A stretch of 63,304 nucleotides of DNA, the filler included, from Collodictyon triciliatum (Eukaryota): the NCBI GenBank assembly GCA_043381765.1. It is 5 parts of 5 records of this genome, joined end to end, with 100 filler letters (N's around TTAATTAATTAA, not from the genome) between each part and the next. Parts side by side here need not be neighbours in the genome. Positions count along the whole stretch, not along the records: positions 26,525 to 39,682 come from JBHJMP010002044.1; 4 more parts are not named here. One strand, written 5' to 3'. The stretch's first letter is position 1, and the number at the start of each line of letters is the position of its first letter. Both the position numbers and the translations under genes were made by a program. Below are positions 9,710 through 53,022 of this stretch, in pieces. Below the pieces are notes generated by a model. That model worked only from the letters and a program-made list of their open reading frames with translations, searched no databases and was not told the origin of the DNA.

Positions 9710-11995
9710 TTACTGAGTCAGCCTGGCCTTCTTCAGGCGGGACGCAACACCCTTTTTCAGGGCAGTGACAAAGCGAAGGATGTTGTTTTTTGAAGCAGGC
9801 AGGACCTCGCTATTGTGCATGCCTTTGTCCCACTCGCGCTGCAGTTTGGCTTCGCTCCAGTTGAGAGCGCGCCCGGCCCGCGGCCCGAGACGGCGCTCAA
9901 AGAACTCGCCCTTTGTGCGGTAGCGGTAGTGATAAGTCTTGAGCAGGCCTTTTGCATCCTGGGCATAGCTGACAGGCTTCTGCCCCAGGTCGCGCTTGAG
10001 CCGGACATAGTGCGGCCCAAAGTTCTGCATCCCGGCGACATAGGCCGGCTGGAAGGTGGACTTTGGGAAGGGCGAGGAGGACTCTGTGACGTTTGTGCAG
10101 ATCTCCACAATCAGCTCGTGCATCTTGCGCCGCTTGTCGCCGCACGGCCCAAACGTGACCCAGTGTGTGTGGATGTAATGCGCCTTGGGGAACTTGTCGC
10201 GGAGGACGGCTCTGACGGTCGGGTATTCCTTGGCCGGGACCAGAAACTCGTCCACGTCGATGAGGCTCATCCACTTGGTGCGGTACCCGAAGCGGTTGAT
10301 GCAGTCTGTAAACGCCTCTGTTTGGGAGTGAAGATGCGGCCAGTATTGGCGCGCAATCAGGAACGGATACGAGCGAATCACCTTCTCCATGACCTCGTCC
10401 GGCTCGCCAGGTGGGTTGTTGTCGTAGAGAATGAAGCGGCGGTAGCCCATGAGAATGTGGAATTCAATCCACTCCACAAGGTTGGCGCCTTCCTTTCGCA
10501 CTATGGCGCATATGGTCATGAAGGTGTTTGAGAGTCTCTTGTCGCGCGGCTCAACCTTGAAAGGGAATGGCGCCGAGAAGATCAACGGGTTGTAGGCCAG
10601 CCGCAGAGTGGTGCTGTTTGTGACCCGGTTGGGCTTTGGGCAGTACGCGAAGGAAACGTCCCCGACAACAGCGGGATATATCTCTGCATCATGGTCTTGG
10701 TCTTCCTCGAGTTCCTGTCCGCGTTTTTTGAGGGCGAACTCCATGACCTGGTGGGTGTCGTCGTCTTTTGCAAGGGAAGAAGGCGGTTGGTGCCCAGAGT
10801 CGGCCCTTTTCGCAGATGGATGCTGGTAGACACAATAGACCTGGTTGCACTTGTTTGGCCTGAGGATGTTTGGTAGGTAGTAGGAAATGACAAGGACCAG
10901 GTCATCGCGCGGATCTTGCAGAACAGAGCGGATCAAGAACGGGCGAGTCTTATCAGCCACAACGTCGTAGTAATGGTAGTAGATCACCTTCTGCCCCAGC
11001 TCGATGCGGGCGCTCCTTTCGATCCAGGAGAAGCCATTGCAGTCGATGCCGTAGTATGTCGGGCACGTCACGATTGTGGAGTTGATGCATGTGGCCGTGG
11101 TCACCTGGTCCAGAATCACGGGATCATTCTGGTGCGTGTTGAACTTGCGGAAGTGGCATTGCAGAGAAGGGAGAGGCAGCTCCTGGTCCCCAGCATCTTT
11201 TGCATCTCGCAGCTTTGTCTGATCCGGAGTGGATTTACACCGGAGATTGCTTGCTAGATGCACCGTGATTACACGCTTCAGGCTGCAATGTGATACGCAT
11301 GTGTTTCTCTGCTCTGTTCCTGTGCGCTGCTGAATCCGTCTCAGCCGCCAGCCGAAATCGTCCTTGCCCAGTCCAGAAAGGGTGCCCTCCCACGGCTGCT
11401 CCTCAAAGGCCAGCTCGGGTGTTGCTGAGGTTCTCGAGATTCTATAGTCCGCGCTGGGATTGTTTATGCCTAGACGATTTACAGGGTCCACAGAGCGGGG
11501 CAATGAGTTGTTTTGAGCGCTTCGGTATTGCGGTGTCTGGGAGACGTGAGACTGGTCGGGAGCATGGTCTCTGTTGTGGTGTGCGTTGTAATTGCCGTTT
11601 TTGGGGTGGTGACGGTGATTATCATGAGGTATGTGTTCGTGTTTTGTTTTTGTTTTGTCTGCGTTGAGGTCGATGTTGTCTTTGATGTTGCTGCCGTCGT
11701 CATTATCATTACCATTACCATTATCATTGTCGTTATCATCGTTATGGTCATGGTTATGGTCGTTATCATCTATGTAGTGGTTATTGATATTGTCTACGTC
11801 GTTGTTGTTGTTGTCGTCGTCATCTTCGGCTTCAATGCCGTCAAGCCAAGATAGACTATTTGGATCTCCTGTGTCTGTTCTAAGTTCAGTTCGGAGTGTT
11901 CGTTCTGTTTGGAAAAAGCTGACTTCCAGCAGGAAAAATGTGATATTGATGACGAGAAGAAGACCAACGGAGCGGAGGCTGGTGCGGCTGGCCAT
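9710..11995 (-). CDS. Glycosyltransferase family 92 / GT2-like (DUF23), type II membrane protein, intronless
   Basis: N-terminal TM (VGLLLVINITFFLL) and D/N/H-rich stem. C-terminal GT92 motifs: MTICAIVRKEGANLVEWIEFHILMGYRRFILYDNN, QTEAFTDCINRF and WMSLIDVDEFL (DxD). First ATG at 11995. Confidence 0.85.
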   Translation of the reverse strand: MASRTSLRSVGLLLVINITFFLLEVSFFQTERTLRTELRTDTGDPNSLSWLDGIEAEDDDDNNNNDVDNINNHYIDDNDHNHDHNDDNDNDNGNGNDNDDGSNIKDNIDLNADKTKTKHEHIPHDNHRHHPKNGNYNAHHNRDHAPDQSHVSQTPQYRSAQNNSLPRSVDPVNRLGINNPSADYRISRTSATPELAFEEQPWEGTLSGLGKDDFGWRLRRIQQRTGTEQRNTCVSHCSLKRVITVHLASNLRCKSTPDQTKLRDAKDAGDQELPLPSLQCHFRKFNTHQNDPVILDQVTTATCINSTIVTCPTYYGIDCNGFSWIERSARIELGQKVIYYHYYDVVADKTRPFLIRSVLQDPRDDLVLVISYYLPNILRPNKCNQVYCVYQHPSAKRADSGHQPPSSLAKDDDTHQVMEFALKKRGQELEEDQDHDAEIYPAVVGDVSFAYCPKPNRVTNSTTLRLAYNPLIFSAPFPFKVEPRDKRLSNTFMTICAIVRKEGANLVEWIEFHILMGYRRFILYDNNPPGEPDEVMEKVIRSYPFLIARQYWPHLHSQTEAFTDCINRFGYRTKWMSLIDVDEFLVPAKEYPTVRAVLRDKFPKAHYIHTHWVTFGPCGDKRRKMHELIVEICTNVTESSSPFPKSTFQPAYVAGMQNFGPHYVRLKRDLGQKPVSYAQDAKGLLKTYHYRYRTKGEFFERRLGPRAGRALNWSEAKLQREWDKGMHNSEVLPASKNNILRFVTALKKGVASRLKKARLTQ

Positions 11996-12063
11996 TGGCA
12001 AAGATGGAATGCGCTTTTCTAGATTTGTTGTATTTTTTCTTTTACGTTTTTTTTACTTTTACT

Positions 12064-13166: not shown

Positions 13167-13266
13167 NNNNNNNNNNNNNNNNNNNNNNNNNNNNNNNNNN
13201 NNNNNNNNNNTTAATTAATTAANNNNNNNNNNNNNNNNNNNNNNNNNNNNNNNNNNNNNNNNNNNN
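13167..13266. other. Artificial contig spacer (N44-TTAATTAATTAA-N44)
   Basis: 100-bp spacer with a six-frame stop linker, identical at four places. Confidence 0.98.
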
Positions 13267-22600: not shown

Positions 22601-25162
22601 GAAGCTTTTTCTTTATAATAAAAGAAAATTCGAAGCTTTGGATTTGCTGAGTAAGTCCTTAAAGATATATATTGAAACGTTGGGACCTAATCATCCAAAA
22701 GTAATTGAAACATACGATATAATTGGAAGCATGAATCATGATTTAAAGAGGTATGCTGTATATTATACAGTGGGAATTGAGAAGGACTGAAAATATTAAA
22801 TTATTTCTAAATTAAATACAAATAGATTTTATCCTAAATACTGTCTATTTTTTTTAGATATTCAGAGGCTCGAGAGGCATTCGAGAAAACTAGATTGATT
22901 ACATTCAGGACTTTGGGAAAAGAACAATCCAACTACGCTACTGCTCTTGAGAACGTTGCTCGCTCAAATTTTGAATTACAAAGGTATTCCTCTCATAAAT
23001 AATTGATGCATTGAAATCAGTTGAGAAGACTATTCAATGAAGTTGTCCGGAAATATAACAAACTCTAATTTACACGGCCCTTTAGTTTTGCGCAGACAGT
23101 TGAATGTTTAAAGGAATCCACTGGTATTCGAAGCAGAACAAAAACTGTTATGATGCTTAATGATTCGAACGAAATAGAGAATATGATTTGGCTCATGAAA
23201 GATAAGAAAGAGTTCAAGTCTGTCATTTTACTCTATCAAAACTTGATAAACCTATTTAAAACGCAACAAGCCACCGATTTCCCTGGGATGTGGAATGCAT
23301 GTCAACAAATGAACGCAATATTCAAGGATAATTACTTGCACAGGGAGGCTGTAGAGTTTTGGGGTGAAATGCAAAGTTGGTTCAAAGATAAATTGAAATG
23401 GTCTCATGATTGGTCATTATTGTCTTGTGAACTTGCATCCTATCACTACAAAAAATTAGGCATGTGTAAAGATGTCGTCGAGCTCACTGGTGTTTTGGAT
23501 TTCATCTGTGTTATTTTCGAGAATCAAGACATAGCAAATCCTTACAGCCGTGAAGAAATCATCAAAGTCCTTTTTGATATCGTCCGCATTTCAAAATCAG
23601 AGCTATCGATGGCAGAATCTGCGTCAAAAGCGGTTACCATTTTGAATTTCATGAAGGTTTCTTTTGAAAAGGTGGACTTTACAGGCATTAGAATTCCAAA
23701 TGCAAATTTGACCAATTCTATAATGAATGGAGCAAACTTTAGTGATGCTGACCTTAGCGGCGTCAATTTTACCAATGCGAGTCTTGATTATTGCATATTT
23801 AATGGAGCGAACATGAATAATACACAATTTGGGTTTTCGAATGGCAGGCTTAAAGGCCATGAAAATCACGTGCTTACGGTTTGCATCGTGCATGGCCCAG
23901 ACGGAAAGTATTGGCTTGCATCTGGTAGTGAGGATGAGACAATTGTCTTGTGGAGTTTGACCACCGAAAGGCCGGTGAGGAGGATAGAGGGCAGCCTTGG
24001 TAACATATTTGCTATTTGTGAGGTACGCGGACCGAACGGTGAGTACTGGATGGCGTCTGGAAGCTCGAGCAAACTTGTTCAGGTGTGGGACGTAGTCTCA
24101 GGAACACAAGTAATGAGACTGGCTGGGCATCGAAGCTACGTCTTTGGATTGTGCTCTTTAGATGGACCCAACGGCGAAAGATGGCTAGCCTCTGCCAGCG
24201 CTGATAAGACCATTCGAATTTGGGATATGAAAACACAGAAGCAAGTGAAGGTTCTGGAGAGGCACACGGATTATGTCCGTAGTGTTTGTAGTGCTCACGG
24301 CCCCAGTGGAGAAAAATGGCTTGTCTCTGGAAGCGAAGACGAGACCGTCATCATTTGGGATTTGACGACATTCGATGCGCTTCGTATCTTGGAAGGGCAT
24401 GCAAACTCAATCAACAGCATTTGCACAATTGATGGTCCTGGAGGTGAGAAGTGGTTGGCGTCGGCAAGTGCAGACAAGACCGTTCGTATCTGGGATTTGG
24501 CTACAGGTGACCATGTAAAGACGATGCAGCGACACACAAACTTTGTTTGGAGTGTTTGCAACGTCCAAGGACCGAACGGAGAAAAATGGTTGGCCTCTGG
24601 AGGATGGGACATGGTCGTGTGCATCTGGGACTTGGCGTCAGGGAATCAGGTGAAAACGCTTGAGGGCCACGATGACGGAGTTTGGACCCTGTGCAGTATC
24701 GATGCGCCGAACAAGGAAGTATGGCTTGCCTCTGGAAGTGGGGATTTCTCAATAAAGCTATGGAATATTTCGTCTGACCGTGATATAAGCGGCACAAAGG
24801 ATCAAGTGGTAGTGTATACCGTAGGACAAAGCCCGCAAGGGAGCCAGCAATGTCGTGAGGAAAATCTGGGTGATGACTTTGAAAAAACTGAGTTTATGCA
24901 GGTTTCATTCCCCAGGATACTTTGTGGTGATTCCGCAAATATAGATGGTGTCAAGGGCTTGAGCGCATACAATAGAAATCTGCTGTATTCGGTCGGTGCA
25001 ATTTCTTTGGAAGAAAGCTTTGTCAAGTTTTGTGAGAAAATCAAGTTCACCAAAGAACAGGCCTTTGAGATGGTCAAATGCTACGAAAACGGATTGGGTG
25101 TGGACAAAAACCTCGAAAAATCCAAGGAGTGGGCCCAAAAAGCAGCCAGTTTTGACCAGTAA
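16603..25162 (+). CDS. Multi-exon NLR-like STAND protein: CH domain - DUF4062 - NACHT/AAA NTPase - TPRs - pentapeptide repeats - 7xWD40 - Sel1
   Basis: Exon 16754-16895 GLLEWVNYQL..DDMEDGFFIVLLLELITG (CH domain). RVLRIFLSSTFRDMQNERD and FIDLRWG (DUF4062, NPHP3/TEP1 type). Walker A AKSGIGKSS, FYHFVG, Walker B YIFMIDAINQ, GHPLYLRLVLDE. Kinesin-light-chain-like TPRs (VAQSYDNIG). A phase-2 splice at 23086 runs in frame into ORF 23150-25162 with pentapeptide, WD40 and Sel1 motifs. Confidence 0.85.
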
Positions 25163-26424: not shown

Positions 26425-26524
26425 NNNNNNNNNNNNNNNNNNNNNNNNNNNNNNNNNNNNNNNNNNNNTTAATTAATTAANNNNNNNNNNNNNNNNNNNN
26501 NNNNNNNNNNNNNNNNNNNNNNNN
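26425..26524. other. Artificial contig spacer
   Basis: N44-TTAATTAATTAA-N44. Confidence 0.98.
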
Positions 26525-26620
26525 AAACAAAAAACAAAAAACAAAAAACAAAAAACAAAAAACAAAAAACAAAAAACAAAAAACAAAAAACAAAAAACAA
26601 AAAACAAAAAACAAAAAACA
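26525..26620. repeat. (AAAAAAC)n repeat at contig start
   Basis: Direct inspection. Confidence 0.95.
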
Positions 26621-26825
26621 GAAGTAGCATAAAAGGACTTCGTTGCGTTAGCTATCAAAACAATTAAGCTGATCTACTTAAAGCATAATTTGTGAATAAT
26701 CTTGCAATAATTTGTGATCAGGAGTCGGATAAAAATCTATATATTTGTGAGAGAATAATATAAAAACAAATGAGGTCGCACTCATGTAAATTATTCCTCC
26801 ATAATATATTACATTTTTACAACAG

Positions 26826-29702
26826 ATGACCTCTATACTCAGTCTTTCAACCGTCATATGGTTCCTCCGTAAGTATATTGTCTCATGTGATATATCAATA
26901 CATAATTAATATATTTTCCATATAGTTTCCCTGGTTGCACCCCAGGCCAATGCCCTACGTACAGAGGCAGCCATTTTAACCACTATTACCAATCCTGGTT
27001 ATTTTCATTGCCTAGCTTTGACTCCTGACGGTAAAACAATTATCTCTGGGAATCAATACAATTTTATCGGTGTTTGGAACATAACAGATGGGAACTTGAT
27101 TCGAAAGCTATCTGGTCATACAGATTTAGTTGTAAGTTTGGCTGTAACCCCTGATGGATCAAAAATTATCTCTGGAAGCAAAGACAAAACATTAAAAATT
27201 TGGAATGTTGCGGATGGAGCTTTAACGAATTCATTGGGGGGCCACACTGACACTGTGATCGACATTTCATTTACCCCAGACAACTCGAGTTTTGTTTCAG
27301 TTGGGAACGAAGTGAAAGTTTGGGATATTTTAACCCTATCTTTGCTTCAAACTTTCAGAGTGGAATTTGTTCCGATATCAAGCGCCTCCGTTTCTCCCGA
27401 TGGCTTGTATATTCTATTAGGGATAGAAAAGGAGATCCAAGTATGGGACTTCTTAGAAGGCAAATACAATCGAACTCTTGGTCTCCAGAAATACACAGTT
27501 ACAAGTTTGTCTTTCACCCCGGATGGCTCCAGAGTAATTTCTGTAGCATTTAACGAGATTCTTGTTCGAGATTATTTAACTGGAAACTTGGAAAAGACGT
27601 TTAGTGGCCATTCACACGACATTACGAGCTCTTCGGTTACCCCCGATGGATTGAAAGTTATCACTGCTAGCAAGGATGGATCTATCAAATTGTGGAGTGT
27701 AGACGAAGGGGTCTTGATTTATTCTTTAATCGGTCACTCGGACTCTGTGGACTCTATGGTCTTAATTCCCGGAAAAGATGAAATTTTGTCAGGGGGCAGG
27801 GACAATAAAATGTGCATTTGGGATATTGCTACTGGAAGCTTGCTTGGAGCGATAGTCGGACAATATAGTAAATCAGTCTCGGTGAGTAAAACTAACTCAA
27901 ATTTAGTTAGTGGCAATAATGATGGCACTATTCATATTCTAACGGTCCCTGATGGCATTATTTCGACCACTCTAATCGGACACAAGGGTGCTATCAATTG
28001 CGTCATCTACGAATCTAGAGAAGATATCATTATATCTGGAAGTGAAGACAAAACTATACGGATTTGGAGAGATGAAGGGAGAAAATATGTAAAGCTAACA
28101 GAGCACACCGGTTCCATAACAAGTTTACACCTTACGCCGTCTGGAAAGATTGTTTCTAGTAGTGCAGATAAATCGATCATTATATGGAGTCTTGGTGGGG
28201 CATTTATTCGAAAAATAACTGGGCATACAGATTCTGTTAATGCGATAGCTGTGACCAACGACGAGACTAAAATAATGTCTGCCAGCAATGATGGTACGAT
28301 AAAATTGTGGAATTACTCGGACGGCTCCTTAATTCGCTCCATCTCTGGACACGAAGGTGGCGTTTTCTGCATCTTTATCAAAGAGGATGCGAACCAAATC
28401 GTGTCTGGTGGAGCTGATCGTTTGATTAAAGTATGGAGTATTTCTAGCGGTGCTTTAGTATATTCTTTCAGCGGCCACAAGGGAAATGTAATTAGCATCT
28501 ATTCATCTGAAAAGGGAATACTTTATTCTGGAAGCGAGGATGACTCTATTAAAATCTGGAATCTCAAAAACAGGACCTTGGTGGACACATTATCGGGTCA
28601 CGGAGATTATGTGTATGGGCTTGCAGTCAGAGAAGATAAAGACATGCTGTACTCAGTAAGCAAGGATGGGACGAAGATGATTTGGAATCTCAAAGAAGAT
28701 GAATTAGTTCGTGTATTTGGTGGGTTCAATTCCAGTATACTTTGTGCCAAATTCAGTCATGATGGTATGAGTATTATATCGGGAGCAGAAGATATGACCG
28801 TGAAAATTTGGAATGCTCTTGATGGCTCTTTGAAGAGGACACTTTATGGACATACTGATTCTGTATCGGGTGTTGCTGTTCTACCTAAAAGTGGGCAAAT
28901 AGCATCAGTGAGCTATGATAAAACGGTAAAAATATGGAGTTTGCATGATGGCTCTTTGAATCGAACGCTGACCGGGCATCGAGATTCAATTACAGGGTTA
29001 GGTGTTTCTGCTGATGGAACAAAAATAGTGACAGGAAGTGCTGATAGCTCTGCAATATTTTGGAATCTTTCTGGTCGCACTATAGTGAAGTATTGGTGCC
29101 CTCCAGTACTCAGCATCGCCCTTACGCCTGATGGCACGCTAATCATCACGGCAAATAACGACCAAACCCTCAGAATATGGGACATTGAAATGAAAAACGG
29201 AATTTTGACTTTGTTCGATAGCTCCAATATGTTCATTAGTGTTGCCGCTTGTCCTGATGGAACCAGTTTTGTAGCAGGTAGCCAAGAAGGAAATATCGAG
29301 GTCAAGAGATTACCAGATGGAAAAACTGTCAAGAAGATTGCTGCCCACAGTGGCCCAGTCTTGTCTGTGGCAGTATCTCCCGACAATACCCAAATTATTT
29401 CGTCCAGTGAAGATAGAACCACAAAAATTTGGGATTTTAATAGCGGAAAGCTGATTTTTACAACTAAAAATGTATATGAGATGCCCAAGGCAATCTCAAT
29501 CAGCCATGATAGTGCGATGTATTTGTCGGGTGATTATGGAACTCTGAGGATTTGGAAAAGGGTTGAAACTTCTCCATCAGAAGATGGTTCTGGAAAGAAA
29601 TCTTCAAATCTAGCCAAAATCTTGGGAATCGTGTCAGGAATTTTAGTTGGAGTCAGTATAGCCTTTGTGATTCGTAGGATTAAAAACCGGGTTAGGACGT
29701 AA
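26826..29702 (+). CDS. Predicted type I membrane protein with about 20 WD40 repeats, join(26826..26868,26926..29702)
   Basis: Spliced N-terminus MTSILSLSTVIWFLLSLVAPQANA|LRT looks like a signal peptide with an A-N-A cleavage site. It is followed by GH...WD/WN repeats, a C-terminal hydrophobic helix ILGIVSGILVGVSIAFVI and a basic tail RRIKNRVRT. Confidence 0.85.
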
Positions 29703-31275
29703 GTCTCATCATTTTTAACCAAATATAATTATTCTTCTTAAATATACTGCTCATGATATTGCTTCAAGCCTTTCGGAAATAACTATGTATTTCTGGAGCA
29801 AATGCTGATACTTTTTCAAAATCCATGCGTAGCGCTTGAAATATTTCAATATTGCCGTATCCACGTTCTTCGACCAACACTACTCAATAAAAAATCTTGA
29901 GATGCAACCAAAGTAAACAAAATCCGTAAAGTCAATATATTATTCCCTTATAATATAATGAAGTACAATTCAAATCACTCATTTTATAATAGAATGAATA
30001 ACTTTATTATCTTGGTTTGGACCTCACACTCTTAAGGCATGGAAAATGCCAACAAAAATAATTAAAATGCAACTTTGCAGGATTTTATATTTTCATTCTC
30101 ATTTTTTGATTTTACAGTCAAGTTCATCAAATTGATTGCCTATATTATGGACATAAAAAGATAATTAGTCTACCAGATACATATTGTATTAAAACAATAT
30201 ATTTTAATTTGCATTTACATAATTTGTTTCAATTTTAAACGATATTTAAAGTATGGCCCGGATTCATGGGGATTTGCTCCTCTATTTAATATCCGCTGCA
30301 CTGACTGTAATGGATCGAAAAACTCAAAACTAATGGCATCGATCAAATACAAAAATTATACCATAATAAATAATTTGTCAGATTGTTATGACCCATCATT
30401 AAAATAAATAAAAATAGAGCATTATGTATCAGTATTGTAACTATCTAGATATTTTTCATAATCTTTTCAAAAACTCTATTTTGATATTATTCTTTGACTT
30501 TTTTCGGTAAAAAGCTAAAAGAGTCTTGACTACCGGTAGTTTAGAAGCTGATTTCGACATCAGCGTTTTTTCACTTCCGCATTCGAGGTATTGGGTTGTA
30601 TATTACTAAAAAAAGAAAAAAATCAACATCATCTAGTAAGGAAATGGACTCGAGTGGATTTGGATGTTCGGATTGAATCACACGCAGAGTATAAAACAGT
30701 GCAGTCGATCATAGATTCTGTGAAAAATTATTTCAATATGCAATACTCTGGCGCATTCCTCTATGTATTCAACAGATAGTAAGCAATATGAATAATATTA
30801 TACATAAGATATTTGGCATGATTATTATCCAGTAAGCGTAGATTCGTCAACAGATGCAAACATATTAACATTCGACAATATCATCTCAATTATGTTTGGT
30901 CGAGTATATAATATGTTAGATGTTTTTTTTTTCAAGATTGATATTTTTTTCACTGTGCTGTTTTATCTGATTGAATGTGTAGGAAGAGAAAAACAGAAAC
31001 AATACATCCATATTGTGAATAAATCCTCCTTGTTGCTCAAAAAACATCAGCCCTCGTAATTTAAACAGGCTCCGTTGATGGTGAGAGAATGAATGCAAAC
31101 CCCTTTGGAGGTAATAATAGCAGTCGGATGAATTTAAGCATCAAACTTTGCTTTTTACATCCAGATATCTCTGGATACAGGGCTTTCAGTGAAATGAAAT
31201 GGAAATAATAATGATAGTTACAGAATACTTTATGATTGCTGTATACGATTCGAGTGCTTCTTCCCTTCTTTTTCC

Positions 31276-31374: not shown

Positions 31375-31779
31375 GATTACCCGCGTGAACTAGACAAATG
31401 CGGAAGCGATAACCCTTTCCAATAATGGTATGTATGTACCGTCTTACTTTCGCCCGACCCAGGCTGATCCCCGTTTGCTGTTGATGTGGCAGCTGGCCAA
31501 TCCGTCTCGCCCCTCCATCAGCCTACATAATAGTCACTTTCCTCTTCGCTGTCGTAATATTCTACTATTCACACTTTCATTTACTGGCACTTTGCATTTC
31601 TTTTTTCTTTTCTTTTTCTTTTTCTTTTTTCTTTTTCTTTTTCTTTTTCTTTTTCTTTTTCTTTTTCTTTTTCTTTATGTTTATGTTTATGTTTATGGTT
31701 ATGTTTATGTTGTAATTTATTTTGCTTCTTGAAAGCAACCTCTGAAGCACGCACAGCAAGAACCACAGGACGCGAGGCC

Positions 31780-33371
31780 ATGACCGAGAACCAGAATTCG
31801 GCGGTCATAGCCGGAGGGGGTCTCTTTGCAAACGGGTCTAGACACGGTCAGGCCTCTGGACAGCAGGCGGAGATCTCTGTGTTTGGCGGGCTGGGGAATC
31901 TGTCCAACAGCAGCGCTGCAATGCTCTTCCCACCAGAGGAGATGGAAAAGACGATCACATACGAAGAGAAGTCCTACCAATTGCAGGACTACAGAGGCTT
32001 CCGCTTGATTGCCGAGGGCGGCTTTGGGTTCATCTACCACGCGCCCAACGAGACGTTTGTCATCAAGAAATCAAAGAAACCGCTTCGGCCCGATCTGCTG
32101 GCGGCCATGCAGAGGCTCTCTGTGGGGCAGTTGAATGATCCAAACCCGCAGGAGTGTGTGATTGAGTTGGAGATCTTCAAGAAAGCCAAAAGCGCTGATA
32201 TCATCAATTTTCTTGGCCATTTCATCCACCAAGGCTACGTGTGCTTTCTCCTCGAGTATGCAAACCAACAAAGTCTTACAAAGTATGTGAAGGAAAACCC
32301 TGAAAACCTCCATATGGGTATGATACTCGACCTTTCCTGGGGCTGTGCAAAAGGTCTTGCGTACATCCACAGCTTGGGCTATGAACATCGAGATATCAAG
32401 TCGGATAATTACCTTGTTTCTTCCAATATTCCGAAACTCACAGACTTTGGTCTTTCACGAAGGGAAGTAACAAACTCAGATTCATCATCCGCTGTTTCAT
32501 CCATAGTCCAGGTTGCGGGTGACTTCCGTTGGTTCGGGCCAGAAACATGCAAAGAATTCTTACAGTCCAAGATGACTGATGTCTTTGCACTTGGACTAAT
32601 ATTCTGGTTTCTGTTGAAGAGGGAGGTGCCGTTCGATGGCCAGATAGATAGATATGTTCTTAAATTCTACAACAATGACAAACGGCTTCAGATCCCCGCT
32701 GTGGCTGAGCCTTACAATCTTCTAATCCAGGCCTGTTGGAGGGAAACACCCGAAACGAGACCAAGAGCAGAAGCGATTGTAGCAGCGTTGTCTAGGTGGC
32801 GCACACATTATCAGACTACCAGGAGCATTGAGAATGTCTCTGTCGCAGAGTTGGCTGGAGAGGTTATTGGTGAAGATGACAGCCAAATGGATCCCTCATT
32901 CCGAACCCTCCTGATTGAGTCACATGTGAGTTTCAGGGTTATCAGTGCAATTTCTCGACAGAACATCACAAAGCAGGGCCTCCGTAATATGAGCATGGAT
33001 GCATTGAGGGCTGTTGTTGAAAGTAATGAGGTGGAATTATTGAACCTTGTCAACGCCCAAAAGAGATTAAACTGGAGCTCCCTAGACGACCAAGATGTGA
33101 GTATTTGTTAATTATCCCTTTTAACATTTACATTTTGGAAAGTGTAGTCGTGCACTTGTTTTTATATGAGCAGCTATTGCTTTCTTTTTTTTCTTTTTCT
33201 TTTTCTTGCCAAATTAAAATTTGAATGAAACCGATATAGTCACTCTTGTCCATTAAAAATAATGAAACATAATCTCCCATTCATCTATTTAATCGAAGTG
33301 GTTTGGAAACATGACTAATTTTATTTTACATCCCCACATCCTTACACTTTTTTATGGTTTCCTTTCTTTTC

Positions 33372-33434
<63 letters not shown>

Positions 33435-35332
33435 TTATGATGAAAATTAAATAGTCCTTACATGCGACGTCCTTAAGCGTGAGACAAAGCTCTGAATCCA
33501 ATGATGGAGACGCATATTATGCTGAAGCTCTTTCGTGTATGAGGTACGGAAATGCCGCTCAAATGACAAACTACCTTCGCTGTGCTTCATTCGAGGGGCA
33601 CCAAAGATCAAAGTACCTGCTCGCGAGATGTTTGATCGAAGGCATAGGAACTGACCCTGATTATCAAAAAGCCAAAGAACTTCTGGAAGAGGTTCTAGAC
33701 TCCAACTCCCAGGATAAGCGATACGAATCATTATTACAATCGGGCTTAGAGTTTATCAACTCGAACAAAAGAATAGACATGCAGTCAAGTGGTAGACACT
33801 TTAATGAACACGAGCCTCCAATGATAGCAGCAGAAGCGGGTTTGTTATACGGACATGTTGCTTACCGTGAGTTTAGTGCATTTGCAATAGCTTTGATGCT
33901 CCTCTATGAAAAGCATCCAACACTTGCACTGTGGCCTCGCAAGCGTGAAGTTGCTGAGGATTATATGCACTTAATTCGCCAATATGAAGGCAGAGTACAC
34001 TATAGAACTCTGGACCGAATGTTACTTCTTGGTCAAAGTTATGTGGGTTTTCTTGAAATCGTGTCCATGATTTACGCGCATCGCCTTATTGGCTTGGAAA
34101 CTTACAGAGATTATAATAGCAAACATCATTTCTATGATGCTGAAGTTAACCCACCTCCAGAAACGCTGGTGAATACAGCGTGTGTCCAGATTGCAGACCA
34201 GGCGGCCTTGGATAGGTTGGATAATCAAGCTGCATTTTACTTTTCAGAATTATTGTCCCGCCTTGGAAGAGGCTCAGCTATGATTCAGCTGGGGCAGTGT
34301 TTTGAAAATGGGTTATATGACAGACAGACTTTAGCAGAGGGAGAAAAGCTGAAGAGAGCAGAAAAATGGTACCGGCAAGCTGCGATGTATGGTCGCCCAG
34401 ATGCATTTTATCGCGTTGCCGTGTGCCTACGAAAGAGTGGCTATGGAGAGGAGAAGAGATTCCTAATCGCAAACTTTGATTCACACGCAGCTAACCTTGG
34501 GTGTAATACAGCGCAATCAAATATTGCTAGCTACCAATTGGAGGCTGCACGAACGCCCGAGAATCGGTACCAGGCATACATCCTTCATCTCCACGCTGCA
34601 CTGAGGGGCAATGCAGAGAGTCAGTATGCCATCGGTGAAATGGCGCTGGCCATTTCCGTGGTTTCATTACAACGAGCTGATTTCTGGCGTTTTCATGGTC
34701 TACGCTGGCTCAATCAGGCCGCTGCAGATTGCCGACATCCTAAAGCTGCATGGACACTGGCTCTTTATTATCTCAATCTAGTCGCCACGTCGAGAGACTC
34801 TGAGAATTATAAGGATTTAAATGCAGCCCTGGAATACCTTGAACTTGTTTGTCAGTCGTTATCCAGCGGCCGCGGTCAATTTGATAGTGGAATAGTGTAC
34901 TACTATATCGGTATATGTCACGCAAAGCTCTCGAAAGTCCCAGACGCCCGTATTGCTGTCCATGAGCACCTAAAGAACGCTTGTTATTATTTCAAAGAAG
35001 CCTATACGAATCATCGAAATCTGAGTGCGGGATACGAGCTGGCCTTTTTCTACAAAAGCGGTATTGTGGTTGGACAGAACTACGATCATTATTTTCATAT
35101 TATGAAGTATCTTGCCGACCAGAACCATGCTTATGCCTGCTACCACTACGCGCTTGACGTCATGGGACTTGATAATGCGGAAGGACTGCGGTACCTCCGT
35201 GTTGCCGCTGAGAAAGGTGTCCGTGAAGCCATCAGGGATTACGCCAACTGTCTGATATTCTACAGCGGTTACATTCCAGCTGATTATGTCTCATGGTGGG
35301 TTGATAAAGCCAGGTCAATGGGCTTATTCTAA
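31780..35332 (+). CDS. TKL-like protein kinase fused to Sel1-like repeats, join(31780..33096,33455..35332)
   Basis: Kinase motifs AEGGFG, VIKK, HRDIKSDN, DFG, RWFGPE, DVFALG. Phase-0 donor GAT|GTGAGT and acceptor AATAG|TCC put ORF 33479-35332 in frame. That ORF has Sel1 motifs (SKYLLARCLIEGIGTDPDYQKAKELL; AMIQLGQCFENG; AEKWYRQAA). Confidence 0.8.
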
Positions 35333-36070
35333 CGTGTGCTCCTCCATCTAAATTCAAACTGGGACTATGCAAAGGTATTCGCACCATACTAACTCCATTC
35401 ATATGTTTGCTTCGAAAACTTTTGGAAAAAAAAATAAACAATACAAACTCCCTCACCCTCCTGCCAAGGAAAAAACCAATAATAATAATTCATTCTGGAA
35501 GTAGGCCTCTCAACCAAATCATCGTAAAGATGATGCCAACCCCACCAGTTCAATCAAGAGCACTTTTCGTCCCATTTACTTTCCTTTGCTCCCAAAAGAA
35601 GAGAAAAGAAAGAAACTCTATCCAAAACTTCATAAAATGAAGCCACAGTTTAGAGCGTCAAATAAATGCTGAGGCACTTTTTCTTCGCTTCTAAGGTGTG
35701 ATTATGTTTCGATACTGCGATTTGCCTGTTAAGCGGAAAGGAAGAAAGGAAACAGAGGTACAAAATCGCTTGTCCGCAGGCAAACTCGCCAAAGTAGCCA
35801 ACCGACATCGCAAGATACGACACCCAAGCCCAGAAGGGTTCGATCCAAGTCGCAACACTTTCTCTGAAAACCTTTTGCGCTGCCTGCCTCGTCTGATCGT
35901 TGCGTGTCGTCTGCCACTGCTTCGATCAGTCCGCCGATCAAAGAGAGCAGCGAGTCAGACCTTCAAACCCCGATCACAGAATATGCCCAAGCGGTCACAA
36001 GAATAAATGAGTTATTTTATTTCATGATTAATAATTAAAAAAAGAAAAAACGTGCATACTAGCAGAGCCC

Positions 36071-37534
36071 ATGAATCCAAACCACCCATCCAACGCACCG
36101 ACGGGCAACTCGTTCCAAAGCCACTCACCAGCTCAACCGCCGCTCTCGATACATCCACACGGACACGGACAATCCCATTCTCATTCTCACCCTCACCCTC
36201 ATCCTCATTCTCATTCTCACTCTCATTCGCACGCGCCTTACTCATCTGCGTCGATGCAGCCGCCTCCGGCCTCACGTCTGGGCCTTCCACAACCCCAGTC
36301 TCAGCCTCAGTCCCAGTCTCAGCCTCAGTCTCAATCTCAGTCTCAGCCCCAGTCTCAGTCTCAGTCTCAGTCTCAGTCTCAGTCTCAATCACAATCTCAA
36401 ACACAGCCTCAGTCTCAGTCTCAGGGACATGGGCAAGGACAAGGACAACCGCAGTCGCAACTGCAAATGCCGACTCCGCCCCAAAACACAGGCCAAAGTG
36501 CTGCAGCAAACTCTGCAACCGGCCCAAATATGCCGGCCCCGCAGAATGCATCGGCGGCTACAAAGGGTGGCACAAGTCATGGTCCGCCGGATGAGGATTC
36601 GTTTGTCCTGCGGTATTTGCAAACTCGTGGATATCGCCATACAGAGGAGGCGCTCAAGAAGGAGATGCAGTTTGCCGTGGCCTCTTTGTCCAAGGAGGCT
36701 GCGTCTGAGGCCTCTGCATCGATGCGCCAGTTTATATCGCTCTATAACTCAGAAGAGAAGACGGCGGAGCAGATTATTGACCACTACTCGCGCCTTCGTG
36801 ATTGGACTCATCAGTCCCTGGATAAGTACAAGGTGCATTCTACTTGATTACGCATTCTGTTGTTTTTGATTTGACTTGGTTTGATTTGTTTGATTTGTTT
36901 GGTTTGTTTGGTTTGATTTGATTTCATTCAATTTCATTTAATTTGATTTGATTTGTTTGATTTGATTTGATTTGATTTGATTTGATTTGATTTGATTTGA
37001 TTTGATTTGGGTGAATGGTAACCAGTTTCTAGTTGCGATGAGATTTTTTCTCGAAAAATATGGATCTTCTATTGTGATTTTGTGTGCATGTCTCTCTTTT
37101 TTTTTTTATTTTTATCACAGCCATGTTTGTTGATCATCCCACATACTAATAAGTAATTATCACGACTTCTTAACACTTTGTTTTGATTCTTTTAGCCAGA
37201 ATTACTCAGTATCCTGTATCCAATTTTTGTGCATCTATATCTGGATTTGGTGCAGAGGGGAACATCTAATTGTATGTGAAAATTCTTCAGTACTAAACTT
37301 GACCAGCAATAATCACTGAGATTAAGGAATATCCCATCAAAATAATGCGACTGTTAATTCCAACTATATGCGCAATAAATTTGGGGTTTTTCTTTTTTTG
37401 GCCTCGATTTGGCTGCTCTCAATAGAGAATGAAATTAGAAGCTTATTTCCAGTCTCTTTTCTCTTTTTCTCTTTTTCTCTTTTTCTCTTTTTCTCTTTTT
37501 CTCTTTTTCTCTTTTTCTCTTTTTCTCTTTTTCT

Positions 37535-37579
<45 letters not shown>

Positions 37580-39567
37580 CTCTCTCTTCTCTCTCCCTCT
37601 CTTTTTCTCTTTCTCTCTTTTTCTCTTTTTCTCTTTTTCTCTTTTTCTCTTTTTCTCTTTTTCTCTTCTCTCTTCTCTCTTCTCTCTTCTCTCTTCTCTC
37701 TTCTCTCTTCTCTCTTCTCTCTTCTCTCTTCAACCATATCAAGTCATGGCGCTAAAGCAAAAACTATACAACTAGTGAGGTATACATTCTACGAAAGGTT
37801 CGTGTCCGACTTTAAGGCCTCTCACAATGACGATTTATTGACACTTCAGTTGATTAGCAGCCCCCACCACCTGAACGAAAACGATCTAGCAGTTGCCTTT
37901 AGAACGCATCGATATGTCGTTCGTGTCTCTTCCTTTTCCATGCACCTACTCGCAGGTTTTCTTCATGACTCCAAATTCATGAAGATATTGGGCATTCTGA
38001 ACCAGCATGTAGACATTAAAGGTTTTCTTGAATGCAATCACATATATATATATAATACACATATAAGTGCTCCTAATTTAGTACTTCTTTTAGCCTTCTT
38101 TATTTTTCCTGTGTTTCAAGTAATCATACGCACCCATGCGCTTCAATCATTTGAAGAATATTTATTGATTTTCTTTTTAGTTAATGAATCCCAAGGGCAA
38201 GGCTCCGCTCTCGAAGACGAAGGCAGCCTTCAATCTAATCAGCTAGCTACTGGACTTCCAGTTAATCAAACTGCGATTCACTGGGGCACTATTGAGGATG
38301 CCTCTATTGTATCTCCTGCACTGCTATCCAAGCGGGATTTCAAATATGTACACGAAACTTTATCATATATACAACTAATGCCATTTTATTCAACTAACCT
38401 AAAGTGTCGAATTTTCTCTTTTACCTGCCTTCAATCGACACTATACTTCCTAACAAAATGCTAAAATTAATATAGGATTCAAATTTATCAAAGAAATTGA
38501 AAAAAGATACTGCTATAGAGAAGCAAGGAGAATTGCCGAATGTGCCTTTACCTAAGCGGTTGGAGCATTGTTTTTATATAAGAAATCATAATTGTGTATC
38601 ATAAATAGATTTCAAATGCTTATTCATCACATAGTATTTCCTATCTCTTCCTCCCATTACTTGTTCGATTGGTCATTAATGGGCCCACAACTACAGCAAC
38701 TGTGAGTTGGAATCAAAAGTGATTGATGAGTTGAAGCAGAAGATAAATGCCAGTCCAGGATCTTTGCCCAGCATATGCTTCCATACTTTCCTCAACACTT
38801 ACCACGGGTAAACTCAAATACTCCAACTCACACTTTTATCTCCATACTTCCTTTTCAGATATAATTCAAATTAAGCTGCTCTCGTATCTTTTCTATTTAT
38901 TTTTTTTACCACGCGTGAAATTATGTGAAAGATTTTATATATTCACTTATGTTTGCATGTGCATACAGCCTTAATACAGTTGAGTTGTCAAAGGACGCCA
39001 CGTACGTAGTCGCCGGATTCGCAGATTCTACTGTCAAGTTCTGGAACTTGGAAAACTCCACTGACGGAGGTTTACCCATGCACATACCTCAACTCTAACG
39101 AGTCTTGTTGAAATGGAAAAAGTCATTCGATAAAGAGATTAACCTCATATAGACAAAGGCAAACTCAACAAAGAAGAAGCTGCGGTTTGTCACACATTGA
39201 TTGGGCACAGTGGACCTGTGTTTGGTGCACATCTGAGCCCCGATAACCAATATATGGTCACTTGCTCCGAGGATGCAACAGGTAGTGAGATAGTTATTTT
39301 CCCTAGACTACAGCAAGACACTTCGAATTGTATATTGAGCGCTGCAAATAATTATAATAATGATAATATATTCTTCAAAACAAGAAATGAAATGCCCGAT
39401 TGAACTTTTTAATACCGCACTTGGGTATATCGATAGTTCGACTTTGGAGTTTGCCAATGAAAAAGAATCTGGTGGCATATCGCGGACACAACTACCCGAT
39501 ATGGGACGTGCAATTCAGCCCAGTCGGTTACTATTTCGCTAGTGCATCCCATGACAAGACAGCAAGG
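36071..39567 (+). CDS. TAF5: TFIID subunit 5 (3'-partial, multi-exon)
   Basis: LisH ([20 protein letters not shown]), NTD2 ([35 protein letters not shown]), [11 protein letters not shown], and WD40s [28 protein letters not shown] and [30 protein letters not shown]. His- and QS-rich N-terminal extension. Confidence 0.92.
37453..37730. repeat. CT-rich compound microsatellite in a TAF5 intron
   Basis: (CTCTTTTT)n, (CT)n and (CTCTCTT)n. Confidence 0.9.
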
Positions 39568-39682: not shown

Positions 39683-39782
39683 NNNNNNNNNNNNNNNNNN
39701 NNNNNNNNNNNNNNNNNNNNNNNNNNTTAATTAATTAANNNNNNNNNNNNNNNNNNNNNNNNNNNNNNNNNNNNNNNNNNNN
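39683..39782. other. Artificial contig spacer
   Basis: N44-TTAATTAATTAA-N44. Confidence 0.98.
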
Positions 39783-52922: not shown

Positions 52923-53022
52923 NNNNNNNNNNNNNNNNNNNNNNNNNNNNNNNNNNNNNNNNNNNNTTAATTAATTAANNNNNNNNNNNNNNNNNNNNNN
53001 NNNNNNNNNNNNNNNNNNNNNN
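52923..53022. other. Artificial contig spacer
   Basis: N44-TTAATTAATTAA-N44. Confidence 0.98.

Follow-up and report, generated by a model that had tools for sequence, protein, structure and literature searches.

A spliced, single-pass WD40 gene of Collodictyon triciliatum and its relation to a probably exported WD40 family

Locus, transcript and neighbouring genes

The window analysed here is a stretch of 63,304 nucleotides of Collodictyon triciliatum DNA in which N-spacer blocks (13167-13266, 26425-26524, 39683-39782 and 52923-53022) join five separate contigs; therefore, genes on opposite sides of a spacer are not neighbours. The gene studied, called the Triple-WD40 gene, is located on contig G000:C2044 (JBHJMP010002044.1), the first base of which is window position 26525, and it starts approximately 300 bases from the end of this contig. 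A frame of 930 codons (26910-29702, plus strand) is joined in frame to an exon beginning with ATG 26826 across an intron of 57 nt (Table 1). Within the contig, no upstream in-frame coding exon able to splice onto position 26826 was found. A CAG located just before the start codon (26819-26825) is a possible acceptor of a 5'-UTR intron.

Table 1. Features of the Triple-WD40 gene in window coordinates
Feature	Position	Strand	Properties and evidence
Exon 1	26826..26868	+	43 nt, phase 1; leader codons 1-14; RNA cover from 26831 (X2 contig)
Intron 1	26869..26925	+	57 nt, GT..AG, 21% GC; skipped by one X2 contig
Leader remainder, residues 15-24, with A-N-A cleavage-like motif	26926..26954	+	Sequence; putative cleavage
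WD40 propeller 1, repeats 1-7	26973..27842	+	Own-repeat HMM, model
WD40 propeller 2, repeats 8-14	27843..28706	+	Own-repeat HMM, model
WD40 propeller 3, repeats 15-21	28707..29573	+	Own-repeat HMM, model
Polar linker, about 14 residues, without Cys-rich stalk	29574..29615	+	Sequence; low pLDDT
Transmembrane helix, residues 912-930	29616..29672	+	KD19 2.36; helix in model; Gly 915/919/923
Basic tail, exon 2 portion	29673..29698	+	Sequence; net +5 including the exon 3 residue
Intron 2	29699..29832	+	134 nt, GT..AG; contains the apparent TAA; skipped by one X1 contig
Exon 3, coding part	29833..29839	+	Split codon completed, one Ala, TGA

An earlier note, made from the sequence alone, had proposed the first intron and had raised the possibility that exon 1 is not used. 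Exon 1 was found to end at a GTAAGT donor, the best among 12 in-frame GT..AG options from ATG 26826, and a contig of the X2 metatranscriptome, 162 letters long with one difference and at a depth of 3.2, lacks precisely 26869-26925, which bears out the proposed intron. This contig starts at 26831 and has 38 letters on the short side of the intron. Exon 1 is thus spliced in, and its Met is the only one before residue 292. At the other end of the gene, a contig of run X1, with a depth of 6.0 and 26 letters on the shorter side, skips exactly 29699-29832. The TAA at 29700-29702, where the earlier note had ended the ORF, lies inside the GTAAGT donor of this second intron, and the stop codon of the spliced transcript is TGA 29837-29839, downstream of which an AATAAA is located at 29886. 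Splicing of intron 2 adds one residue (Ala) to the tail, so that the basic tail comprises ten residues rather than the nine claimed, and the spliced product comprises 940 aa.

The junction contigs of both runs were at least 99% identical to the window. Each intron was documented by one low-depth contig, and no contig covered the entire gene; X2 is a metatranscriptome, and X1 was taken as RNA by guess. The X1 contig also covered the region from the WD40 repeats through the helix to the tail (29195-29698). The gene was partly covered in all four runs examined, with single short pieces in each of X3 and X4. At 28320, 28497, 29406 and 29484, X1 differs from the window; all four differences, at a depth of 4-6, change an amino acid, and one makes a new sequon.

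Downstream on the same contig, a Tyr/Ser-Thr-like kinase ORF is followed by an ORF of 625 codons, probably as parts of one gene (31558-35332, plus strand); the latter ORF looks Sel1/TPR-like by eye and had no Pfam match at E<=0.001. Splice fusion of the Triple-WD40 gene to this kinase was rejected because the RNA junction leads to the stop-bearing exon 3, and neither of two long phase-compatible acceptors before 31900 opens the kinase frame. Exons at 36035-38464 (plus strand) encode LisH and TFIID_NTD2 and are consistent with TAF5. Elsewhere in the window, a family 92 glycosyltransferase whose long stem is of low complexity is encoded at 9710-12052 (minus strand), and an intronless pentapeptide and WD40 ORF is located at 23069-25162 (plus strand), on a different contig from the Triple-WD40 gene; its repeats are of the type found in the NACHT-WD40 genes of this genome. 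A functional link to this ORF was rejected since it lies on another contig and matches the outside profile better than that of the family.

Predicted protein and its repeats

The leader is hydrophobic (KD19 1.97) and has no basic n-region. It ends in the small-x-small motif A-N-A at residues 22-24, as the earlier note had read it, and no basic cluster follows. The sole other strong hydrophobic segment is the predicted helix at residues 912-930, which agrees with the single transmembrane segment claimed. The 15 residues before this helix have a net charge of 0, and the tail carries net +5. Glycines 915, 919 and 923 of the helix have GxxxGxxxG spacing. The tail is Arg-rich, with Arg at -3 and -5, and does not contain the lysines that define the canonical KKxx/KxKxx signal. 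A leader present in the mRNA and one C-terminal helix with the positive charge on the tail side are features of a type I membrane protein; a GPI anchor was rejected because of the charged tail after the helix. The spliced transcript stops ten residues past the helix, and the earlier reading that there is no signalling tail is supported; nor is there a catalytic one.

The recurrence of N-x-S/T sequons had been taken as a sign of an ectodomain. Eight sequons were observed, and the mean of shuffled sequences was 8.06 (p=0.57); since the count equals the shuffle mean, the sequons are no evidence for topology. A W-N-x-S/T site was present in only three of the 21 repeats. The 21 blades contain seven Cys residues, with no blade-by-blade disulfide pattern.

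An HMM built from the protein's own repeats detected 21 WD40 repeats at residues 31-897, close to the approximately 20 canonical repeats counted before, and Pfam WD40 (PF00400) scored 409 bits against a cut-off of 27. Repeat identity within a propeller was 27-31%. With a single sequence, AlphaFold gave a pLDDT of 34, and it was therefore rerun with a 24-row alignment; AlphaFold 2 then predicted an all-beta body and a C-terminal helix (pLDDT 81.6, pTM 0.49). The model contains 83 strands, which corresponds to 21 four-stranded blades less one, the long strand 592-609 being counted as two. Three seven-bladed propellers are the natural reading of the repeat count and of the paralogue arrays, which come in multiples of seven, and the earlier proposal of three propellers is supported to this extent. 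Given a pTM of 0.49, the mutual packing of the propellers is not fixed by the model. The best Foldseek match was 2ymu, a two-propeller WD40 protein described in the available text of its source as a 14-repeat, two-domain protein (PMC5587647), and the top matches were intracellular multi-propeller proteins. An Atlas search with the protein returned generic WD40 clusters only, with scores up to 0.90. No NACHT or effector domain was found among the Pfam matches, of which 25 of 53 families were inspected, all propellers.

The leader-WD40 family, its ancestry and comparable systems

A search for other proteins with a signal peptide, WD40 repeats and a transmembrane segment had been recommended in the earlier note. 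The genome contains a large family with a leader followed by arrays of seven-repeat units. Searches of the assembly (75.4 Mb, 14,576 contigs) gave at least 369 and at least 70 matches (123/1104 and 150/1414 candidates scored). A set of 84 WD40 ORFs was drawn from the best-placed contigs, one per contig, and represents a sample, not a census. Exactly 7, 14 or 21 repeats were counted in 46 of the 55 arrays closed at both ends; a contig end fell inside the array in 11 of the 84 ORFs. Cys-rich repeats of extracellular type directly follow the WD40 array in 58/84 ORFs, and a shared multipass module is present at the end of 21/84. The short form, with a short linker and one hydrophobic segment, was found in one other ORF of the 84, L019 (1009-2214, plus strand, contig G000:C3411), which encodes a leader, seven WD40 repeats, a Pro/Ser linker, one hydrophobic segment and a short tail. 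Pfam detected Ephrin_rec_like in both stalk segments scanned and, among 25 segments, DUF7630 in 14 and FG-GAP_2 in nine. The multipass module had no Pfam GPCR match and no significant PDB sequence match; its Atlas neighbours were unnamed, DUF7630, Ephrin_rec_like or TRP, at 11-15% of members. Long arrays also occur: L039 (768-8912, minus strand) has a leader and 53 WD40 repeats followed by FG-GAP repeats, and L033 (2-5176, minus strand) has a leader and at least 41 WD40 repeats. In L048, L053, L060, L084, L138, L143 and L147, the WD40 head is followed by a low-complexity spacer of Ser-Gln or Ser-Lys-Ser-Arg, and in several of these FG-GAP repeats come after the spacer.

A phase-1 leader exon of 37-49 nt was present in 42 of 62 genes and was exactly 43 nt long in 23 of these 42. 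This rule was fixed after the first leader exons had been inspected; on held-out genes, it was satisfied in 8/17, versus 0/38 and 7/672 control anchors. The leader exon of the Triple-WD40 gene, 43 nt in phase 1, has the same length and phase as these 23. In the paralogues, no membrane segment lies between the WD40 repeats and the disulfide-type repeats, which places the WD40s on the same side of the membrane as the latter.

In the family, W-N-x-S/T (a fixed pattern) stands in place of 'WD' in 444 of 824 repeats; because the repeats are homogenised, these counts are not independent events. The same pattern was found in 40/1366 repeats of 99 outside leaderless WD40 proteins, in 23/302 repeats of 21 bacterial leader-bearing WD40 proteins picked by eye, and in 5/126 repeats of 20 NACHT loci of the same genome. 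The first-propeller repeats within genes vary most at columns 9, 10, 12, 28 and 30 (470 repeats, 84 genes). At these five columns the difference was 0.73-0.89 versus a mean identity of 0.64, values that do not amount to a formal dN/dS. First-propeller repeat identity was 67-83% in the four paralogues checked.

The three propellers of the Triple-WD40 protein matched the family best (42-43%, versus 35-39% for outside proteins) and grouped with it with SH-aLRT values of 92 (103 rows) and 99 (30 rows), in trees for which the outside set had been selected by likeness to a family member. Their branches were long (1.3-1.6), and when the protein was compared repeat by repeat with 17 paralogues that have 21 repeats, no significant colinearity was found (p=0.19). 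Membership is therefore based on the type of repeat and the structure of the gene rather than on colinear orthology. In place of the Cys-rich or FG-GAP stalk and the multipass module of the common form, this protein has a 14-residue linker and one helix. The gene is a diverged, atypical family member, with no stalk, a single helix and diverged repeats.

The earlier note had also suggested derivation from NACHT-WD40 sensors. At least 41 NACHT matches above the Pfam cut-off were found in the genome. Large intronless NACHT ORFs of 1,669-2,459 codons were seen at loci L109-L128, approximately half of them with WD40 arrays that have a distinctive inserted loop. The WD40 repeats of these NACHT genes are of a different type from those of the Triple-WD40 protein, and AU tests, performed on a 30-row random subsample, rejected their grouping with this protein (p=0.00015) and with this protein plus the family (p=0.029). 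Origin from the genome's own NACHT-WD40 genes was therefore rejected, and the suggested derivation is unsupported for these sensors. The nearest outside repeats came from STAND/TIR/kinase WD40s of bacteria and fungi, which leaves room for a remote ancestor of sensor type.

Outside the genome, neither Cys-rich repeats nor a C-terminal helix was found in any of 236 WD40 proteins among the matches listed, and neither feature was found in any of 85 WD40 ORFs at 80 metagenome loci among the matches listed; the searches, limited to 8000 candidates and 599 pattern rows, order matches by the number of repeats and take no account of introns, which makes this absence weak evidence. A leader-like start was present in 49/236 and 11/85 of these sequences, respectively. 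No description of a eukaryotic canonical WD40 ectodomain was found in the literature searched, which covered few subscription papers. In that literature, exported canonical WD40s are predicted in bacteria, and a eukaryotic precedent for canonical ones was not found.

The nearest eukaryotic case described is that of the plant CRINKLY4/ACR4 receptor kinases (bioRxiv 10.1101/2020.08.10.245050), for which the available text gives a signal peptide, an extracellular seven-bladed propeller termed 'WD40' by its authors and a single transmembrane helix, a layout also predicted for the Triple-WD40 protein; the propeller is succeeded by a Cys-rich domain, which is also the order in the paralogues of the latter. 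However, according to that text, ACR4 has a disulfide per blade, a buried N-terminal strand, a BLIP-II/UVR8-like fold, one propeller and a kinase, whereas the Triple-WD40 protein has three propellers of canonical GH-WD repeats (PF00400), no per-blade disulfide and no kinase. Canonical arrays predicted to lie outside the cytoplasm are described in bacteria: periplasmic WD40 arrays of Planctomycetota membrane Ser/Thr kinases, expanded in the phagocytotic 'Ca. Uabimicrobium amorphum' (accessible portion of PMC11032199), predicted extracellular WD40s of cyanobacterial orthocaspases (accessible portion of PMC7475262) and, among the proteins compared here, leader-bearing bacterial WD40 proteins. Most of these are single-pass presumed sensors, and in the portions of both papers the placement is by prediction and not by localisation data. 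They are either type II, with the catalytic domain inside and the WD40s C-terminal, or soluble; in contrast, the Triple-WD40 gene is eukaryotic and intron-split, and its product would be type I without a catalytic domain.

A chassis of Ephrin_rec_like, DUF7630 and a multipass module was found in 14,121 representatives at E<=0.001. Proteins of Rigifila ramosa, Mantamonas plastica and Thecamonas trahens use the same chassis as the 21/84 paralogues and carry interchangeable repeat heads, often propellers; the best outside matches to the paralogues' membrane module came from R. ramosa and M. plastica in 11 of the 18 proteins looked up. The heads of 31 outside chassis proteins scanned were RCC1-like (7/31), FG-GAP (3), PQQ (2), TIG, filamin, LRR and DOMON, and none of the best 155 outside chassis homologues matched the WD40 profile used here. 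The Triple-WD40 gene differs in having no such chassis at all.

WD40 propellers serve as recognition surfaces, as may those of the paralogues, in the Podospora anserina HNWD NLRs HET-D/HET-E (PMC12222747, available part). By an inferred offset of two, the variable columns 9, 10, 12, 28 and 30 of the paralogues would correspond to HET-E positions 11, 12, 14, 30 and 32. As described in that part, HNWDs are cytosolic proteins that carry HET and NACHT domains and have repeats more than 80% identical, whereas the Triple-WD40 protein has neither domain and 27-31% identity.

Topology, function and meaning

It is considered fairly likely that the Triple-WD40 gene encodes a type I membrane glycoprotein with its WD40s outside the cytosol, which may serve as a binding platform or co-receptor. 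The leader would act as a cleaved signal peptide; the propellers would fold in the ER and face either the cell exterior or the interior of a secretory compartment or food vacuole; and the C-terminal helix would halt transfer, leaving the basic tail in the cytosol. The ectodomain claim of the earlier note thus stands in part: the WD40s probably lie outside the cytosol, as indicated mainly by the RNA junctions and by the paralogues, of which the latter weigh most for the topology, whereas the sequons fall away as support. More tentatively, the three propeller faces may form a multivalent protein-binding platform for adhesion or for the capture of prey, microbes or partners. Because there is no enzyme or adaptor tail, signalling, if any, would proceed through recruited partners or tail binding; conceivably, the partners are recruited by the Gly-zipper helix, or the tail binds lipid or the cytoskeleton. 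Since the repeats are old and diverged, a co-receptor or adhesin of fixed specificity is likelier than a diversifying family member.

The same type I topology would suit a housekeeping scaffold or cargo receptor in the lumen of the ER, Golgi or another organelle, with no role in surface recognition. Diverged, non-homogenised repeats, the missing stalk and the lack of a sequon excess are in line with such a role, and the Arg-rich tail, with Arg at -3 and -5, bears a loose resemblance to ER retrieval signals, but the lysines of their canonical form, KKxx/KxKxx, are missing. Moreover, the nearest relatives bear long Cys-rich stalks typical of surface proteins, and no orthologue of the layout was found among the 236 proteins and 85 ORFs listed, whereas a housekeeping protein would be expected to be conserved. 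A luminal scaffold is therefore considered unlikely. Lower still is the probability given to cytosolic WD40s, for which the leader would have to be an uncleaved reverse signal-anchor or unused, and the helix and tail would form a tail anchor in the manner of Sec12 or of an organelle outer membrane. In its favour, most WD40 proteins of eukaryotes reside in the cytosol or nucleus, intracellular proteins head the Foldseek matches, sequons are not in excess, and basic tails occur on mitochondrial and peroxisomal tail anchors. Nevertheless, a Sec12-like tail anchor has no N-terminal signal, and here the leader exon is spliced in and provides the only start; its small-x-small end is not followed by a basic cluster, and in paralogues with the same leader exon the WD40s come after the leader and before the Cys-rich repeats, and no membrane segment intervenes. 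This arrangement is accordingly judged quite improbable.

The gene might also be a decaying or neutral by-product of shuffling within the family, a WD40 head that lost the stalk and multipass module and gained a hydrophobic end. The long branches fit this, as do the four amino acid-changing differences in X1, which are of low depth and too few to test, but the 930-codon frame is intact, parts of the gene are covered in all four runs, both ends are spliced, the 21 blades model well, and a second single-pass member exists (L019); decay is thus very improbable. Finally, an assembly or amplification chimera of leader, WD40 array and membrane helix could be suspected in an assembly so fragmented and for a gene so close to a contig end. 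Contigs of two other studies, however, span the join of leader and WD40 array (X2) and the stretch from the WD40s through the helix to the tail (X1), and dozens of paralogues have the leader-WD40 layout, which leaves a practically negligible probability for this explanation.

The Triple-WD40 gene is real and spliced, and it belongs, as an atypical member with a single pass, to a lineage-specific family of probably exported WD40 proteins; it represents a variant of the modular protist surface receptor, with a predicted topology that is well supported. A bolder picture, which is entertained only doubtfully, is that this predatory protist, probably of the CRuMs, has an extracellular WD40 recognition repertoire of at least 84 genes, with HET-E-like diversified faces and Cys-rich stalks, directed at prey or pathogens. 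The Triple-WD40 protein, without stalk and without variation, would then act as a co-receptor, its Gly-zipper helix pairing it with the variable multipass members. Such a repertoire, if true, would be a counterpart to the expansion of WD40 sensors in phagocytotic Uabimicrobium, a bacterium.

In eukaryotes, canonical WD40 propellers are regarded as scaffolds of the cell interior, and propellers on the cell surface are usually of other repeat types, such as FG-GAP, YWTD or RCC1-like. A WD40 family that has moved outside, with an N-glycan site replacing 'WD' in more than half of its repeats, would show that this limit is historical, not physical. The members of the family are also candidates for a role in the recognition of prey or microbes by a deep-branching predator. 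For the Triple-WD40 gene, use of the leader exon is documented at the transcript level, and this gene would offer the simplest construct for a test of topology.
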